The notes under the pieces: generated by a model
Databases searched by the model: none
Told to the model about the DNA's origin: nothing
What the model saw: the letters and a program-made list of their open reading frames with translations, nothing else
IMG/VR virus record: IMGVR_UViG_3300009509_000706
Location: 3,466-67,465 of that record
DNA: 64,000 nt
Origin: a virus
Strand: one strand, 5' to 3'
Shown: positions 2,819-49,634 of the stretch, piece after piece
Layout of the letters: every line of letters begins with the position of its first letter
Position numbering within the stretch: position 1 is the stretch's first letter
Program-made: the position numbers and the translations under genes

Positions 2819-3597
2819 AAATCGTGGTATTTGGTGCTGGCTATTGGGGCAAGAATTATATCCGGGAGCTTGGGCGACACTGTGTGCTCGTGGTTGACCC
2901 GAATAACGCGGCGCGCGAGGAAGCAATAGCAAGATTCAAGATAAAAGCAATGCCAGGATTGCCTCATGATCTTGATTTTGACGGAGCAATTATTGCTACC
3001 CCACCTGATGAGCATTATATTACAGCGTTACCTCTATTGCAAAATGGTAAATATGTTCTAGTAGAAAAGCCGCTTTCCCTCTCCCACGCAGACGCACTTA
3101 TGTTGGCAGCTTATGATAAATGTATGGGCAGCTTAGTCTATTTATATCATCCAGAAGTAGAGAGATTGAAAGAATCCGTTGCTGAAATAGAGCTTTCCCA
3201 CATTTTCAGCCGGCGCACGAATGATGGCCCTATCAGGCCAGACGTTGATGCGTTGTGGGATTTAGCTCCTCATGATATAAGCATGTTCAACTATATCTTT
3301 GGAAAAGCGCCAAATATCCCACTCAAGGCTCTTAGAAATCGCAATTATGCTACTTTCTCGCTGGATTATGGGGGAATACCCGCTATCTCTTACGTTTCTT
3401 GGCATGGTGGGCCTAAAATGCGCCAGGTGGAGCTTGTCCCGCGCAGTGGACAACGGATAATATTTGACGACCTGGCAGTTGTGCTTGAGGAGCCACCATT
3501 AACACGCATGGTCAAAGCATTTTTATCTGGGAAGTGGGATCGATGCTATGGTTGGCAAGCCGCTGAGGTGATCAAGGTTTTGGAGGCGTTAAGTTGA
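2815..3597 (+). CDS. Gfo/Idh/MocA oxidoreductase (WbpB/WlbA-like sugar 3-dehydrogenase)
   Basis: GAGYWG, IATPP..H, VLVEKP, WDLAPHD. Confidence 0.88.
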   Translation: MKIVVFGAGYWGKNYIRELGRHCVLVVDPNNAAREEAIARFKIKAMPGLPHDLDFDGAIIATPPDEHYITALPLLQNGKYVLVEKPLSLSHADALMLAAYDKCMGSLVYLYHPEVERLKESVAEIELSHIFSRRTNDGPIRPDVDALWDLAPHDISMFNYIFGKAPNIPLKALRNRNYATFSLDYGGIPAISYVSWHGGPKMRQVELVPRSGQRIIFDDLAVVLEEPPLTRMVKAFLSGKWDRCYGWQAAEVIKVLEALS

Positions 3598-38678: not shown

Positions 38679-38888
38679 CTATTTATTGGCTGCTTCACAC
38701 CTTTTGCAAATATCCACCGGCCTACTTTGATACTTGATGTGCCTAAAATGCTTTCGGGGCAACTCTTTGTGGCAGCGATCGCAGACCCATCGGCCACGAC
38801 GTGCGTGTCGGTGGGCGTATATCTCACGTACTTGCTGTACGATTGAATTTGGCTCACGGATGAATCTGGGTGGGATTTTCTTTACCAT
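38679..38888 (-). CDS. Zn-finger protein
   Basis: CDRC...CKRC; RBS within a repeated leader. Confidence 0.55.
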   Translation of the reverse strand: MVKKIPPRFIREPNSIVQQVREIYAHRHARRGRWVCDRCHKELPRKHFRHIKYQSRPVDICKRCEAANK

Positions 38889-38936
38889 TTATAACCTTTC
38901 CTAAAACAAAATCACCTGCTCTGTTCGCATCTTGAA

Positions 38937-39464
38937 TCAATAGTTACTATTACTAATTCCATATTCATAACCGCATACTACGCAGAGCCATTCTTCGTCC
39001 CAACTCATCGGCATACCGCCAAATTCCATTGCCGCGCCAGGGTTATAATGGGCTTCTCCAATTGATAAGATAGCATGTTTGTCAGAATCACAGCGCGGGC
39101 ATTGATAGGGCCATTGCCAGAATTTTTCATGCCCGCACTCCACGCAGGAAAAGAATCTGTCTGGTAATTTGTCGGCTGACAGTGGCTCATTGCAATATGT
39201 ACGCCCAGGAGCATTCATGGTCAAGCTATCACAGCCGCTACACCAAGAATATTTGCCCAGTGCTTTGCCAAGTTGCTCTTCTTTGAGTTCCCCAATACCT
39301 TCAATTTCTACGTCAAGGCGAGTATTGCATTTGGGACACTGAATCGGCGTAGCTTCTATGCCATAATCAGGCCATGTATATCCGCAGGCTGCACACTCAT
39401 AATCAGAGCCGTGACCTATATCCAGTTCACTATATTGTGTGGAAGCATTGACAATCCTAAACAT
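38937..39464 (-). CDS. Multi-Zn-ribbon protein
   Basis: At least six CxxC motifs. Confidence 0.65.
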   Translation of the reverse strand: MFRIVNASTQYSELDIGHGSDYECAACGYTWPDYGIEATPIQCPKCNTRLDVEIEGIGELKEEQLGKALGKYSWCSGCDSLTMNAPGRTYCNEPLSADKLPDRFFSCVECGHEKFWQWPYQCPRCDSDKHAILSIGEAHYNPGAAMEFGGMPMSWDEEWLCVVCGYEYGISNSNY

Positions 39465-39508
39465 CGCCTTATCCTTTCCTAAAACAAAAAGTCCTTCTGT
39501 TCTATCAC

Positions 39509-39850
39509 CTAAGACGATCTTGCCTTGTCAACGATAGATATGACGCGCGGGTCTGCCGTATCAACAAGGTCTGGCATATATCCAGCAGCGATGAGCCGCC
39601 AGCATGGCCCACTCTGATTCTCTGGTTTCTGATAACAGTCAACCCAGTCGTCTGTCGTTTCTTTTATAACGTCAATGATCCAGATGTCCCCTTGACGCAG
39701 TGAGTTCCATTCTTGTACTGCTTCTTCAACAGTTGGGCCACTTTGATAATGCTCACAGTTTCCGCACCAGACTTTGTAACCGAGGGCATACTTGAATATC
39801 TCAAGGCTCATATTGTCACAAAAAATACAAGGGCTAAGAATTTCGCTCAT
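39509..39850 (-). CDS. Lar-like (restriction alleviation family) Zn-ribbon protein
   Basis: LSPCIFC...VWCGNC...EEAVQEWN. Confidence 0.6.
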   Translation of the reverse strand: MSEILSPCIFCDNMSLEIFKYALGYKVWCGNCEHYQSGPTVEEAVQEWNSLRQGDIWIIDVIKETTDDWVDCYQKPENQSGPCWRLIAAGYMPDLVDTADPRVISIVDKARSS

Positions 39851-39867
39851 CGCCTTATCCTTTTCTA

Positions 39868-40066
39868 AAACAAAATCACCCGCTTTGATCGCAGTTCCCC
39901 CAAACCATAAGGACTTTTGAGGGTAGCGACTCCCCCTTCTACTAAGGGGAACCGCGACCAAAACAGGTGATTCATTTTGCGCCTTATGGTATTTACAGCT
40001 TCCATTGTCAGGTCGCCATCCCGACTGCTGTAAGTTCATTTTATCACGTTTCGCCAGAATTGTCAA
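39868..40066 (-). ncRNA. C4/CI-like antisense switch B (promoter, target boxes, long stem)
   Basis: TTGACA-17-TAAAAT; about 27-bp stem 39874-39900/39946-39972; leader boxes complementary to stem-enclosed sequences. Confidence 0.65.
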
Positions 40067-40226
40067 GTAAGTATTTCTTTGAGAGCAATTTTCCATTGAG
40101 CTTGACAATGATTTCTGATATTGAGCAATCTTCTGGCGTTTCATCTGGTGCTGCTGCCCATGAACCTTCGAGCCAGTATAATAGGTCAATGGCTTGCTTG
40201 TTAGTAAGATAGATTGTTATGCCCAT
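40044..40226 (-). CDS. Hypothetical protein flanked by direct repeats
   Basis: GAGGTG RBS; TCGCCAGAATTGTCAAG at both ends. Confidence 0.55.
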   Translation of the reverse strand: MGITIYLTNKQAIDLLYWLEGSWAAAPDETPEDCSISEIIVKLNGKLLSKKYLLDNSGET

Positions 40227-40248
40227 TTGCCACACCTCGCCAGAATTG

Positions 40249-41193
40249 TCAAGCAACTGCCCTCGCCACTTTCATAAAGCCCCAAAAGTCATCAACCGAG
40301 CCGCCATACCTATAAAAAAATTCGTCGGCCTTGACCGGCAGATTGACGACGCGCCCGCGTCCATCAAATAGTTTTGCCAGTCGAAAAGCCGACTCTATAG
40401 CATCTGGGTCGAGGGCTACGTAAACGACCTTTGTGGCCTTGAACTCATTTAGCCAGCTTCTCTTGAAAGAACGCTGACTCATGATTCCACAGTTTGGGAT
40501 TCCATGTTGTGCCAAGACAATGCTCTTTTTCTCGCCCTCTACTACCACGGGATCAGGCCATTCGTTAATCAAATCGAGATTGAATAGTGCAACTGACAAG
40601 CCTGCCATGTGGGGCCGATATTTGTCTCCCCCATTAGCGCCCTTGATTCTGTGTCGGATATTGAGCAATTGACCGCCGTTTACTACGGGAATAGTATAGC
40701 TTGCTCTCCCATCATAGTCTGTTGGGCAGCGCGGGCAGTAGCCGAGATTGTAGCGGGCAATACTGCCGTCGTCAATGCCCTCGTTGTGCCACCATTCCCG
40801 CGCTTCTGGCATTCTATCTAGCAGGCGATTATAAGCAATGTGATCCTGGCAACGAGCCATCCGCTCAAGCGCATCGAGCCGTCGTTCGTGTTCTCGTTGC
40901 TTGCGCTCTAGCGCCTTGACTCTGGCCTCAAGCCTTACCTGTTGCAATTTTTCTGGTGACAGGCCAGCATCAGGCCAAAGGTCTTTTGGCTCAAGTCCCA
41001 ACGCAGCCACGATAGCGTCAAAGTCGCAACCTGAGAAGCAATGGAGTAGCACCTGGCCTTGATCGCCGATGCCAATGGATAGAGATGGGTTATGATCGTC
41101 GTGTGCTGGGCAGCGGGCAAGCCACTTGTCTAGGCCATGTGATTTGACTGCTTCGAGTAACGATAGGACAAGTTCAAGAGACTGCATAGTCAT
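40249..41193 (-). CDS. DNA primase (CHC2 Zn finger plus TOPRIM)
   Basis: CPAHDDHNPSL..HCFSGC, VVVEGEKK, ALDPD. Confidence 0.85.
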   Translation of the reverse strand: MTMQSLELVLSLLEAVKSHGLDKWLARCPAHDDHNPSLSIGIGDQGQVLLHCFSGCDFDAIVAALGLEPKDLWPDAGLSPEKLQQVRLEARVKALERKQREHERRLDALERMARCQDHIAYNRLLDRMPEAREWWHNEGIDDGSIARYNLGYCPRCPTDYDGRASYTIPVVNGGQLLNIRHRIKGANGGDKYRPHMAGLSVALFNLDLINEWPDPVVVEGEKKSIVLAQHGIPNCGIMSQRSFKRSWLNEFKATKVVYVALDPDAIESAFRLAKLFDGRGRVVNLPVKADEFFYRYGGSVDDFWGFMKVARAVA

Positions 41194-41311
41194 GTATGCC
41201 CTCGCAATTGGCGCACTGATAAACTTCGTGCCTTGCGCCATTTTCTGCTATGTATTCATACAAAAACGATAGAAATGTATAGGCCTCACAGTGTGTACAG
41301 TAAGAGTGCAT
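41174..41311 (-). CDS. Small Zn-ribbon protein
   Basis: CTHC...CANC; GAGGAG RBS. Confidence 0.5.
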   Translation of the reverse strand: MHSYCTHCEAYTFLSFLYEYIAENGARHEVYQCANCEGIHDYAVS

Positions 41312-41321
41312 TGTTTGCTCC

Positions 41322-41624
41322 TCAAAACAAAAGCTCTTGCATTTTGTCACCATCGGCAAAGCCCGCGCCATGAATAGGGCAGTCGGGATTTGAAATCGGG
41401 TCAGGATTGCAATTGAGAAAATCTGCGCAAATGCAGCGAGCCTCTGTCATCCCTTTTTTGTTATGAAATAATGTCGGCATGGCTTCTGATTGCCAGTACC
41501 AATCTATGAGAGTCACCCAATCGCACTCAGTACAATAATAGAACGTGATAAGCAACACCCTATTATTTACTGTAGCCTCAGTTACGGTTTTTTCGGCGTC
41601 TGCGCCACATTCTTGGCAATACAT
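41322..41624 (-). CDS. Cys-rich hypothetical protein
   Basis: CQEC, CTEC, CIC...CPIHG. Confidence 0.6.
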   Translation of the reverse strand: MYCQECGADAEKTVTEATVNNRVLLITFYYCTECDWVTLIDWYWQSEAMPTLFHNKKGMTEARCICADFLNCNPDPISNPDCPIHGAGFADGDKMQELLF

Positions 41625-41640
41625 CGTCTTATCCTTTCCT

Positions 41641-41837
41641 AAACAAAAGCCCTAATGTGCTATCACCTGAGCGGTATCGGCGGCAAAGGTTTTTTGTGCT
41701 ATACGTGACGCTCCGTATAGCCCGTTACCGCCCATGTGATAGTCCACAAGGGCTTTTCCTTACCTTTGCCTAACTGTTAAAATAGGGGCGTCACTCCCTA
41801 CTAACTCCATTCTACCACGTTTCGCCAGAATTGTCAA
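41641..41837 (-). ncRNA. C4/CI-like antisense switch A
   Basis: TTGACA-17-TAGAAT; long stem 41645-41757; boxes GUGACGC and GGCAAAGGU complementary to enclosed sequences. Confidence 0.7.
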
Positions 41838-44076
41838 GCGGAATACTGTCATTTGCAGACTGCGCTTCCGCCCAGGCAAACAAATCGAGGGAATTTACAT
41901 CGCGCTCGACCATTTGCAGATTCTTGACGGCTACGTTGAAATAACTTTGCTTCAATTCTATGCCGATCCCCTTGCGTCCCATCTTGACGGCCTGGTAAAT
42001 CTCTGAGCCAATCCCGGCGAAGGGCGAAAGGATCGTTTCGCCAGGATTGCTCCAAAGCGCGATACAGCGTTCAATTGTACCAAGTTGCAGGGGGCAGATA
42101 TGCTTGTCATCATCCTCGGCGCGGGCAGTCGTATATTGTAGGGTATCAGTTTCTCTGATTCCCCACCAAATCGGATGCGCCCATTCGATCCATTGATCCC
42201 GTGTTAACTCTCCGTTGGCTACGGGATTGATCGGCGTTTGATTCTCGCCAGGTTTTTTGAAAATCAGGATATAATCGCCAATCGCTGGCCTTGACCACGA
42301 GCTGTCTTTTTCCATTTGGACAAAAAGAAGCGCCTTGCTATGCGTGCGAATGGCCTGTGCTTGCGGATTCTTATCTATCGTGACTCTGCCGTGATAAATC
42401 CATCCGCGATCCTCAAAGGCAGCGATGACTTTGCCAGGGAAATCTTTAAGGCCAATATAGCCATCCTTGCTGAGCAGAGCAGGTACATCAGCAGTATGGA
42501 CGGCGCAGATACGTCCAGGTCGCGTTACCCGCAGTAAATGATCAATGATATAGCCAAAGTGGATAAAGAAATCATCCGCATTGGCAGAATTACCCAAGTC
42601 ACGCTCCGTAGGACTATATGTATACAAATCCATAAAAGGCGGACTGAATACGCTAAAATCAATGCTGTCAGTCTTGATTTCTGCCAGACGCTCTACAGAA
42701 TCACCCAGCATCAAAGTCCAATCCTTGCCCTTGATGGTATCAACGTTATATGTTTCCCCACCATCATTTTGTTCCGCCAGCTCATCTCTTTCAAAAGCCT
42801 GTACATTTTCGATGAGTTTAGTTGCCATAGTATTTGCCTGCTCCTCTTTTCTCATAATATTAGTGTAAATCTCTTGTTCTACATCTCCGAGTACAATGTG
42901 AACATTGACCTCTTCTTTTTGCCCGAACCTGTAACAACGACGGATGGCCTGATAGTATGCTTCCCAGCTATCACTCAAGCCGACGAATATCATATTGTGG
43001 CAATTCTGGAAATTCATACCGAAGCCAGCGATCTTCGTTTTAGTAACCAAGACTCTTATAGTGCCATTCTGGAAGTTTTCTAACGCCTCAATCTTCGCAT
43101 CAAGGCTATCACTGCCTTGTACCTCTACAGCATCATGTATGGCTTTAGCCAGCGCCGCACTTTCATCATTCAGACCGCACCAAACGATCCATTGTTCGCT
43201 AGAATTATTGACGATTTCAGCAGCAGCAGAGACTCTATCTCCTATGGTTTCGCGTCTTATTTGTCGCCTATGCCCTATGCCCTTGAGACCAGTAAAAAAC
43301 AACTGGTCTTCTGGGACATAATCTGTGGGGACGAATAGTGAAAAGATATTTAGTGGGGGAAGTACGAATCCGTCATCGTCATAGCCGAGATCGGACGGCT
43401 TGCGTACTGACATGCCCCAACTGGCGAGCCAACGGTAAAATGCTTCTTCAGCATGGCCGCGCAATCGCCAGCCTTTGTCATCATGTACGAAAAAGGCGGC
43501 AAGCATATCGGCTCTGGTCATCACGCCTAGAAATTCGGCATGGTTGGCAATCTCTGCAATGTCATTCGGGGCTGGCGTTGCTGTACAACAGAGTCTTAGT
43601 TGCACATCAGAAAACATATCCGTTAGCTTGCGCCGCGTCTTGCCGTCAAGCCCTTTCAAAATCGAGCTTTCATCTAATATTACCGCGCCGAAGGCGGCAG
43701 GATTAAATCGCTCGATCATTTCATAATTGGTTATATAGATTTGCGATGGGCTATTATCCGCCTGTTCCTGGCTGCGTACATAATAGACTTGCAGATCAAT
43801 TTTCTGCGCCTCTCTTACCGTTTGTTTGGCTACTGACAAGGGGGCAATAATCAATGTTCTTTTGCCAGATAACCTGGCCCATTCCAGTTGCATGAATGTC
43901 TTCCCCAGGCCAGTATCAGCAAATATCGCCGCCCGCCCCTTGCGCAGCGCCCAGATAGTCAAATCCTTTTGGAAGTCAAAAAGTAGCCTGTGTACTTCAG
44001 ATTGTGGCGCAGAAATGCCGCACGTTTTTGCTTTGATACATTTTGTTTTCAAGAAGGCTTGATAATTCATGCTCAT
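41812..44076 (-). CDS. SNF2-like helicase fused to an N4/N6 DNA methyltransferase
   Basis: DTGLGKT, LDESS, TATPAPN, QAIRRCYRFG; VFSPPF and LSPFAGIGS. Confidence 0.9.
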   Translation of the reverse strand: MSMNYQAFLKTKCIKAKTCGISAPQSEVHRLLFDFQKDLTIWALRKGRAAIFADTGLGKTFMQLEWARLSGKRTLIIAPLSVAKQTVREAQKIDLQVYYVRSQEQADNSPSQIYITNYEMIERFNPAAFGAVILDESSILKGLDGKTRRKLTDMFSDVQLRLCCTATPAPNDIAEIANHAEFLGVMTRADMLAAFFVHDDKGWRLRGHAEEAFYRWLASWGMSVRKPSDLGYDDDGFVLPPLNIFSLFVPTDYVPEDQLFFTGLKGIGHRRQIRRETIGDRVSAAAEIVNNSSEQWIVWCGLNDESAALAKAIHDAVEVQGSDSLDAKIEALENFQNGTIRVLVTKTKIAGFGMNFQNCHNMIFVGLSDSWEAYYQAIRRCYRFGQKEEVNVHIVLGDVEQEIYTNIMRKEEQANTMATKLIENVQAFERDELAEQNDGGETYNVDTIKGKDWTLMLGDSVERLAEIKTDSIDFSVFSPPFMDLYTYSPTERDLGNSANADDFFIHFGYIIDHLLRVTRPGRICAVHTADVPALLSKDGYIGLKDFPGKVIAAFEDRGWIYHGRVTIDKNPQAQAIRTHSKALLFVQMEKDSSWSRPAIGDYILIFKKPGENQTPINPVANGELTRDQWIEWAHPIWWGIRETDTLQYTTARAEDDDKHICPLQLGTIERCIALWSNPGETILSPFAGIGSEIYQAVKMGRKGIGIELKQSYFNVAVKNLQMVERDVNSLDLFAWAEAQSANDSIPLDNSGETW

Positions 44077-44104
44077 TTCTCCATTCTTATATTACTCTAG
44101 TTGT

Positions 44105-44277
44105 AAAATAAAAGGCCCTGATCCCCATGCCCGTTGCCCGCTTTGTTGTTAAAATCCACTCTCGCTGCCAGGCAAGAATGCGGCAAAACGGGCCGGGGGA
44201 TCAAGGCCCTCGGCTAAAACCTATATTCATTCTTGCCTGGCATTCTCTATTATACACCCAAACACAAAATCTGTCAA
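44105..44277 (-). ncRNA. Antisense/attenuator switch C upstream of the helicase-MTase
   Basis: TTGACA-17-TATAAT; 15-nt leader box exactly complementary to a sequence inside the long stem 44113-44210, which ends in a U run. Confidence 0.65.
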
Positions 44278-44427
44278 GCCCCAATCTGTGCTGCATATTC
44301 ACGGCGCAACGCCTCAAGAATCCTGGTCGCTGTGCTTGCCCCGCAAGCCTCAACCTCGGACAGTGCGGCCTCAAGCTCTACCAGGTCAAAGTCATCTGGA
44401 ATGAGCAATGTTAGAATCTCGCCCATA

Positions 44428-49513: not shown

Positions 49514-49634
49514 ATTATACAGCATTTCGCCAAGTCTGTCAAGCCTTTTTGCAAGGCTATTACCTTATGCGACAAATTCTAACCATTTCTAACCAAAATG
49601 CGCTATTGAATTTCTGGATAGTTTGTGGTATAAT
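49514..49634. promoter_or_regulatory. Divergent promoter pair with a central GTTAGAA direct-repeat site
   Basis: Minus TTGACA-17-TATAAT (49542-49514); plus TTGAAT-17-TATAAT (49606-49634); TTCTAACCATTTCTAACC between them. Confidence 0.8.

Follow-up and report, generated by a model that had tools for sequence, protein, structure and literature searches.

Leaders with internal antisense boxes on long terminator hairpins: candidate RNA-RNA-controlled attenuators ahead of phage replication genes

The c4 RNA of P1 and P7 controls an antirepressor operon (icd/ant), and its definition includes a second complementary pair, a2/b2, placed over the ribosome-binding site (RBS) of the first downstream ORF. 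The immunity of the satellite phage P4 uses Rho and blocked leader translation. In the account of P4 given in PMC4825925, the leader of the replication operon gives rise to the CI RNA, which pairs with seqA and seqC, and the result is premature termination. The same source describes IsrK of the Salmonella prophage Gifsy-1, where a single promoter yields a short terminated isoform and a read-through isoform, the former acting in trans on the latter. For pT181, PMC3753616 describes recognition by kissing hairpin loops, a terminator hairpin that is induced by antisense binding, and the possibility of orthogonal variants.

Here we describe a leader that resembles each of these systems in part. It belongs to an uncultivated phage and lies in the IMG/VR virus record IMGVR_UViG_3300009509_000706, which is 67.5 kb long and has direct terminal repeats. 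The window, that is, the whole stretch of 64,000 nucleotides that was analysed (positions 3,466 to 67,465), makes up most of the record. DNA runs containing this sequence are labelled marine sediment; of the listed runs with this sequence, none is recorded as RNA. Neither Phage_integrase nor HTH_3 has a match in the 67-kb record (CheckV completeness 60), so there is no sign of a role in prophage immunity. The leader, called switch B, consists of the following parts, with structures as predicted by RNAfold where indicated.

40038..40067, minus strand: promoter, with TTGACA at 40066-40061, a 17-nt spacer, and TAAAAT at 40043-40038
39993..40033, minus strand: leader hairpin, with an inner stem at 40025-40007 and the 7-nt loop AUGGCGA at 40019-40013 (RNAfold)
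40018-40012, minus strand: box a, UGGCGAC, in the loop of the leader hairpin
39990-39982, minus strand: box b, ACCAUAAGG, single-stranded, ending 9 nt before the base of the long stem
39874..39972, minus strand: long terminator hairpin of 28 bp, with the 5' arm at 39972-39945 and the 3' arm at 39901-39874 (RNAfold)
39919..39936, minus strand: inner hairpin enclosed by the long stem at its tip; loop of 8 nt, AGUCGCUA
39930-39924, minus strand: anti-box a', GUCGCUA, in the inner hairpin at the tip of the long stem
39912-39904, minus strand: anti-box b', CCUUAUGGU, unpaired, ending 2 nt before the 3' arm
39875-39867, minus strand: U tract, UUUUGUUUU, the first two U of which are paired at the stem base
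39864-39858, minus strand: RBS, AAAAGGA, directly after the U tract, with an ATG at 39850

UGGCGAC, ACCAUAAGG, GUCGCUA and CCUUAUGGU are all at the minus-strand positions at which a preliminary description of this DNA had placed them, the promoter, U tract and RBS that it named are present as well, and the stem of about 27 bp that it reported is folded by RNAfold as 28 bp enclosing both anti-boxes. The promoter has 11/12 consensus matches in a promoter scan and, judged by its sequence, is a near-consensus sigma-70 promoter, with transcription predicted to start near 40031. The 28-bp stem stands directly before UUUUGUUUU, the arrangement of an intrinsic terminator, and the same is seen in relatives of the leader. 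A simple terminator scan (3-8-nt loops) does not list this terminator because its stem is far longer than usual. Variants at 39888, 39889, 39893 and 39895, within the 3' arm, are seen in DNA contigs of four runs among the matches listed.

The fold energy of switch B is -76.6 kcal/mol (z = -5.6), which was equalled by none of 200 shuffles (RNAfold). Box a pairs with a' through 7 bp, one of them G-U, and box b with b' through 9 perfect bp; box b contains an SD-like AAGG. When the hairpin interior was shuffled 500 times, 5 shuffles reached the two-box score; of the 14 interiors of other family members, none did. Within the 64-kb window the 9-mer ACCATAAGG has two sites only, both within the switch B boxes, and other sites complementary to the boxes are not found beyond chance.

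Switch B is one of three such leaders. The preliminary description had noted the same architecture in a switch A; the paralogy holds, and a third copy, switch C, was found in the follow-up.

41625..41838, minus strand: switch A, same plan as switch B with other boxes
41837-41809, minus strand: promoter of switch A
41794-41788, minus strand: leader loop box of switch A, GUGACGC
41770-41762, minus strand: second leader box of switch A, GGCAAAGGU
about 41757-41641, minus strand: long bulged stem of switch A, enclosing both anti-boxes and followed by a U tract and RBS
41711-41705 and 41690-41682, minus strand: anti-boxes of switch A, GCGUCAC and ACCUUUGCC
44080..44277, minus strand: switch C, with its promoter at 44277-44249 (12/12 matches)
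44242-44229, minus strand: leader box of switch C, UGCCAGGCAAGAAU, 14 nt
44211-44111, minus strand: long stem of switch C, a terminator hairpin of 99-101 nt, followed by a U tract
44179-44166, minus strand: anti-box of switch C, AUUCUUGCCUGGCA, within the long stem, the exact complement of the 14-nt leader box

The identity between promoters B and A is exact over the 23 bp that had been reported (40067-40045 = 41838-41816). The 16-mer TTGACAATTCTGGCGA is present in three copies, all on the minus strand, and the observed match count was reached by none of 100 shuffles. C, A and B head three consecutive gene groups on one strand.

after switch C, minus strand: a 754-aa SNF2-helicase/DNA-methylase fusion
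after switch A, minus strand: a 100-aa zinc-ribbon gene, then the primase (40249-41241)
39509..39850, minus strand: 113-aa CxxC zinc-ribbon gene after switch B, with its ATG at 39850
downstream of the 113-aa gene, minus strand: zinc-ribbon proteins of 175 aa and 69 aa, then the initiator and the helicase
38603-37689, minus strand: replication initiator (PHROG replication initiation, E 3e-18)
37686-36697, minus strand: DnaB-like helicase (E 4.5e-19)

The earlier placement of switch B ahead of an initiator and a helicase is confirmed by these two matches. The label "Lar-like" for the gene that directly follows it is weak: the 113-aa protein matches Pfam Lar_restr_allev at E 0.0033 with 18.1 bits, below the cut-off of 28.6. 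A protein comparison detected no relatedness among the proteins that follow switches A and B and the product of the next gene, so the switches do not mark duplicated genes.

Like CI of P4, the box-carrying RNA of this locus is a regulatory RNA, as we read it, from the leader of a replication-gene operon, and an internal sequence is complementary to an upstream site; the outcome proposed here, premature transcription termination, would also be shared. Unlike P4, the phage leader has no downstream seqC-like site. The RNA that carries the boxes is itself a long intrinsic terminator, it has two boxes (a loop and a single strand) rather than one, and three copies with different boxes are present in one genome.

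The likeness to P1/P7 c4 lies in a' and b' being part of a folded RNA that is cotranscribed with its targets, with a complementary a/b pair upstream. The genes downstream are not icd/ant, as in c4, but zinc-ribbon proteins, a primase, an initiator and a DnaB-like helicase. When the hairpin interiors were compared with the 70 nt downstream, the own score equalled or exceeded all cross scores in only 3 of 15 instances of the family (defined below), and for switch B the best match was of 6 nt (AUAAGG), which is background level. Rfam was searched as well, a check that the preliminary description had suggested for the C4 models. A cmscan of the whole window against 4227 families gave no match at gathering score, nor did a search of 12 related loci, and neither 39000-41000 (E<=10) nor 41500-44400 (E<=5) shows C4 (RF01695). 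Having no second target over the downstream RBS (no a2/b2 pair) and no Rfam C4 match, the element is not a member of c4. The original antisense-switch reading is supported in part: the element is a leader with an internal antisense, borne out by the complementarity of the boxes, and it would act as a switch on downstream expression; membership in c4 was rejected.

With pT181 and pIP501 the locus may share a leader that takes two folds, as predicted here, one of them a terminator just before replication genes, and, as proposed here, recognition by a kissing hairpin loop. It differs from both in that the terminator tip of the sense transcript itself bears the complementary sequence. In the promoter scan no plus-strand site with 9/12 or more matches lies between 39870 and 40035; there being no promoter-like site on that strand of the leader, this is not a counter-transcript system. 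The proposed action of a short terminated form on a read-through form is like that of IsrK. IsrK, however, activates translation of a downstream ORF, the phage leader has a different fold, and Rfam isrK has no match in the window.

The design varies two known themes: sense-encoded antisense control (P4 CI, P1 c4, IsrK) and antisense-driven attenuation (pT181). Its distinctive traits are that the anti-boxes are on the terminator hairpin, that there is no downstream target, and that one genome holds several copies whose boxes differ. Rfam 15 does not contain the element. Matches that appeared at permissive E values, namely BLi_r0872 (E 0.098), mir-2300 and snoRNAs, were rejected as chance. Literature searches, which did not cover the supplementary lists of the IMG/VR catalogue PMC10690425, yielded no description of the design, and the hairpin may or may not sit among the approximately 8,500 unnamed IMG/VR candidates of that catalogue.

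Relatives of the leader were sought through the DNA and through the neighbouring primase. There is no near-identical DNA by blastn of 39400-42000 against phage and plasmid collections, and neither the 22-nt promoter nor the RBS motif was found in IMG/VR when scanned for as an exact pattern. Relatives of the primase (40249-41241) at 43-62% identity are found in IMG/VR and in metagenome contigs; in a scan of representative genomes the primase had distant zinc-finger matches only, with no close prophage. The loci were scanned with a script that looks for a long ungapped stem with a T tail and then for complementarity between the 90 nt upstream and the stem interior. In many of the 26 primase-related loci the gene strand shows this architecture again. 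A near-consensus promoter, often carrying TGTGGTATAAT, is followed by a leader 30-91 nt long, then by 18-32 stem pairs, a U tract and an RBS. Next comes the primase in L113, L114, L115, L120 and L130, an initiator-like gene in L129, an HNH-type gene in L109 and L123, and small ORFs elsewhere.

With strict filters, 28 close loci (0.21 Mb, both strands counted) gave 14 matches, approximately 11 of them distinct (L006 is identical to L110, L115 is nearly L116, and L120 is nearly L121). The same filters gave three matches in 1.57 Mb of distant loci, with box scores at background. For the comparisons below, and those with the downstream 70 nt above, 15 instances were used: A, B, C and 12 relatives. 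L116, L121, L119 and L006 were dropped as near-duplicates, and the set does not include L109, the element of which was recognised later, or L117, the leader of which is cut by a contig end. Several elements with different boxes per genome recur, as there are three in the window and two in a complete 99.9-kb relative (G001), one of these found by the covariance model described next and the second, with different boxes, by the script.

A de novo covariance model, R1, was built from six members. Its best match is the long hairpin of switch B, with 92.9 bits, versus 37.3 on the opposite strand. R1 also finds L125 and, with filters off, L110, L114, L111 and L123 at E<1e-3, switch C at 0.011 and L120 at 0.023; L130, L119 and L117 reach E values of about 3-4 only. 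The same model does not find switch A, with its bulged stem, at E<=10, and has no match in 98 distant loci (562 kb).

Evidence that the boxes pair comes from the comparison of own and cross pairs. By a contiguous two-box score, the own interior beats every cross pair in 13 of the 15 instances; the exceptions, L114 and L131, each have one equal or higher cross score. Depending on the instance, between 0 and 23 of 500 shuffled interiors attain the own score. As a structure-aware measure we used the cofold ddG, which is the energy of the cofold minus that of the two separate folds. By this measure all 15 leaders prefer their own interior and 14 of the 15 interiors prefer their own leader, with means of -15.5 kcal/mol for own and -5.7 kcal/mol (sd 3.0) for cross pairs. 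RNAduplex, which ignores intramolecular structure, places the own interior first in only 5 of 15 and does not single out the cognates. The leader of A with the interior of B has a ddG of -12.2, versus -16.0 with its own interior; given this sizeable predicted affinity, orthogonality is not perfect. The second box is only 5-6 nt long in four instances (three at the 5-nt minimum), and the automatic choice of boxes gives a crossing order in 10 instances and a nested one in five.

Base changes in the stems point to the strand and the molecule concerned. Stem positions comprise 303 Watson-Crick pairs, 47 G-U, 2 A-C and 14 others, and the excess of G-U over A-C indicates that the fold belongs to the sense-strand RNA. 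Between L113 and L115 there are four compensatory double changes, three in the long stem and one, from A-U to G-C, in box b. For six members RNAalifold gives 27 pairs, with changes on both sides at 18 of these; on a MAFFT alignment of all 15 hairpins it predicts none, the alignment being too poor. The preliminary description had reported boxes that differ from those of A yet stay complementary, and its reading hung on that complementarity being kept in relatives. Box scores, cofold ddG and compensatory changes extend the statement to them: complementarity is kept with different letters, and the pairing is cognate-specific across the 15 instances.

Based on these sequence comparisons, the leader is probably a real, uncatalogued RNA switch for the expression of replication genes. 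More specifically, we propose, with a probability of about 0.45, that C, A and B are paralogous promoter-proximal leaders that divide the replication block into transcription units and act as transcription attenuators controlled by RNA-RNA pairing. The analysis itself shows the sequence features, the predicted fold and its strand specificity, covariation, cognate specificity and the alternative fold predicted for partial transcripts; from these we infer that termination takes place, the direction of the effect and the action in trans.

Predicted folding bears on how such an attenuator might work. For a partial transcript that ends with the hairpin interior and has no 3' arm, the minimum free energy (MFE) structure joins leader and interior by at least 9 pairs in every one of the 15 instances. 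For the full-length RNA the terminator is the predicted MFE structure throughout, with a margin of 14-37 kcal/mol over the alternative fold, and for A, B and C this structure includes the long hairpin. Two folds are thus predicted, and the order of synthesis would favour leader-to-tip pairing first. One anti-box adjoins the 3' arm by 0-2 nt in most instances. The linker between the proximal box and the stem base is at most 6 nt in six of the 15 instances. On geometric grounds, such a linker is too short for the proximal box to reach the far end of its own completed stem of 18-29 bp; in these six, therefore, pairing would either replace the full terminator or take place between molecules. In another six of 15 the linker is 18-42 nt, long enough that a pseudoknot might combine leader-to-tip pairing with the full stem, and exclusivity in cis is not general. 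The pairing plan is that of a hairpin loop against a loop plus one single-stranded box, which by analogy is the two-step plan of natural antisense systems, and for pairing in trans the crossing or nested order of the boxes matters little.

The attenuators are proposed to act as follows. Read-through into the downstream genes would depend on whether or not the leader boxes are paired with the anti-boxes. In the nascent transcript, leader-to-tip pairing would be favoured before the 3' arm is made; closure of the terminator would be delayed, and read-through would result. Terminated leader RNAs would build up from the strong promoter, with their anti-boxes exposed on the tip of a rigid hairpin. 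They could then bind in trans to the boxes of later nascent transcripts, by a kissing loop and a single-strand zipper, and this binding would pre-empt pairing in cis and restore termination. The outcome would be autogenous negative feedback or an early-gene timer, in which the sense-strand terminator hairpin itself acts as the "antisense" RNA and differing boxes keep the three units independent. Two considerations weigh on this scheme. A local hairpin normally zips up faster than distant segments pair, and termination may therefore prevail in any case, which speaks against an attenuator. The terminated RNA also carries its own boxes and could dimerise instead of acting on nascent RNA. That the leaders constitute a new class of autogenous attenuator, in which a terminated sense leader is the trans-acting "antisense" RNA, signalling the output of its own promoter to nascent transcripts, and orthogonal copies serve as dosage or timer controllers of replication-gene blocks, is a wider claim that we hold to be possible but doubtful.

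It can be argued that there is no switching at all, and that the hairpins are strong insulating terminators, with leader-to-tip pairing serving to compact or stabilise the 5' end or to guide the folding of the hairpin. The full-length predictions, which always favour the terminator, agree with this, as does the way in which three gene groups of like orientation are set apart by the three elements. However, boxes that covary and are cognate-specific in 15 instances would be costly for a folding aid alone, and a terminator between a strong promoter and its own genes needs a means of passage. We consider this explanation unlikely.

Rather unlikely, too, is that the main product is a stable small RNA, terminated or processed by RNase III, which has other targets in trans or assembles head to tail, with effects on read-through being secondary. 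The phi29 pRNA, which assembles through intermolecular loops, offers a parallel for the head-to-tail assembly, and stems as long as these are typical RNase III substrates. The combination of a strong promoter with a strong terminator fits a small RNA, as do the stem length, in view of RNase III, and the position of boxes and anti-boxes at opposite ends of a rigid long helix (24-32 bp); so does the geometric inability of the box nearest the stem to reach its own hairpin tip in six of 15 instances. Against it, neither the window nor the downstream RBS offers another complementary site beyond chance, and the element always lies directly between promoter and RBS, as expected of a leader that acts in cis.

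Attenuation could also be mediated by ribosomes. Translation of a leader ORF would keep the terminator open, and the CCUU anti-box on box b would block this translation and bring about termination. In switch B an AUG at 39975, 6 nt after AAGG, opens a frame of 36 codons that ends 7 nt past the stem, and similar ORFs with an SD and a start that span the stem are seen in L113, L115, L129, L108 and L130. Such an ORF is missing in switch A, L110, L131, L125, L123 and L111, and is present in only approximately six of the 15 instances; a leader peptide as a general conserved feature was rejected on this count. Moreover, the changes between L113 and L115 are compensatory for the RNA stem, and a 40-codon open frame is not rare by chance. 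The probability of this mechanism is accordingly small. A DNA-level element, such as a single-stranded hairpin serving as an origin or primase-loading signal near the primase, initiator and helicase genes, would suit the location inside the replication module and the G-T pairs that single-stranded DNA also tolerates, but is very improbable given the fixed place on the gene strand, downstream of a consensus promoter and followed by a T tract and RBS, boxes that differ per copy, unlike repeated protein-binding sites, and the occurrence of the element before non-replication genes in relatives, e.g. HNH.

Under the wider claim of a new class, the copies would make up a library of orthogonal RNA transcription regulators that occurs in nature. 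Synthetic biologists have engineered orthogonal attenuators, as described in PMC3753616, and, if the attenuator reading is true, the phage copies would provide ready-made parts of a kind that, going by that source, has hitherto been engineered. The RNA-RNA attenuators known from P4 CI, P1 c4 and pT181 would be extended to a new architecture and a new phage group. For the phages themselves it would mean that replication genes are controlled by a self-contained RNA device, without a protein and without an antisense promoter, and that this device exists in naturally orthogonal versions inside one genome.

A variant of the transcribed core of switch B is found in a second genomic background. Like A and C, B is a minus-strand leader in which a promoter and boxes precede a long terminator hairpin that carries the anti-boxes. 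The variant of the core (window 39858-40032) is present on a DNA contig of run X3, where it shows 11 differences from the window copy, four of them in the 3' arm of the B hairpin, and is embedded in flanks that are unrelated on both sides. Because of these unrelated flanks, the core has the appearance of a mobile module, one that seems to move between phage backgrounds.

Further features of the window and of the complete 99.9-kb related phage G001 are as follows.
G001:C1, about 88678-88596 and about 69013-68905 (loci L188, L192, L193): two elements of the same design
Window 39975-39865, minus: 36-codon ORF
Window 49514-49542, minus: further 12/12 consensus promoter
Window 41812-44076, minus: 754-aa ORF, SNF2-type helicase fused to an N6/N4 DNA methylase domain
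Window 40237-40252, minus: third copy of the 16-mer TTGACAATTCTGGCGA
Window 40226-40044, minus: 60-aa ORF after the third 16-mer copy
Window 39462-39510 and 38886-38925, minus: partial copies of the 3' end of the switch

Both G001 elements sit behind 12/12 promoters and differ in their boxes; one of the promoters (TTGACAAATTCTGG...) is similar to that common to A and B. The motif UGGCG occurs in three leader loops, those of B (40019-40013), of the G001 element near 88.7 kb and of the relative L125, whose loop reads UUGGCG. These loops resemble those of plasmid loop-loop antisense regulators, which have a common 6-base loop, UUGGCG, according to PMC3753616. The likeness may stem from shared ancestry or from a loop motif that pairs quickly.

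The 36-codon ORF starts 6 nt past the AAGG of box b, the single-stranded leader box of B, spans the entire terminator hairpin and stops inside the U tract. Among the 15 family members examined (A, B, C and 12 relatives), comparable hairpin-spanning ORFs are present in about 6, and switch A has none. The A leader is predicted to bind the B hairpin interior (41770-41756 vs 39915-39904), through UAAGGA and UCCUUA, with an affinity of -12.2 kcal/mol, and -5.3 is predicted for the reverse pair, B leader with A interior; the modelled energies suggest that one-way cross-talk from A to B is possible.

The further promoter heads the early region, and no self-complementary terminator leader lies behind it. 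The third TTGACAATTCTGGCGA copy and the stop codon of the primase overlap; the -10 element of this copy, CAAATG, is poor, and no switch follows it. The 60-aa ORF ends in LLDNSGET*, repeating the end of the 754-aa ORF (LDNSGETW*), since both ORFs enter the common promoter sequence. The 754-aa fusion is the presumed gene under control of element C.

The partial copies, which consist of GGUGAU..., a U tract and AGGAAAGGAUAAGGCGAUG and have neither promoter nor long stem, precede the 175-aa and 69-aa zinc-ribbon genes. Comparison of the small-gene proteins detected no relatedness among them. The small zinc-ribbon genes look like cassettes with common boundary sequences.
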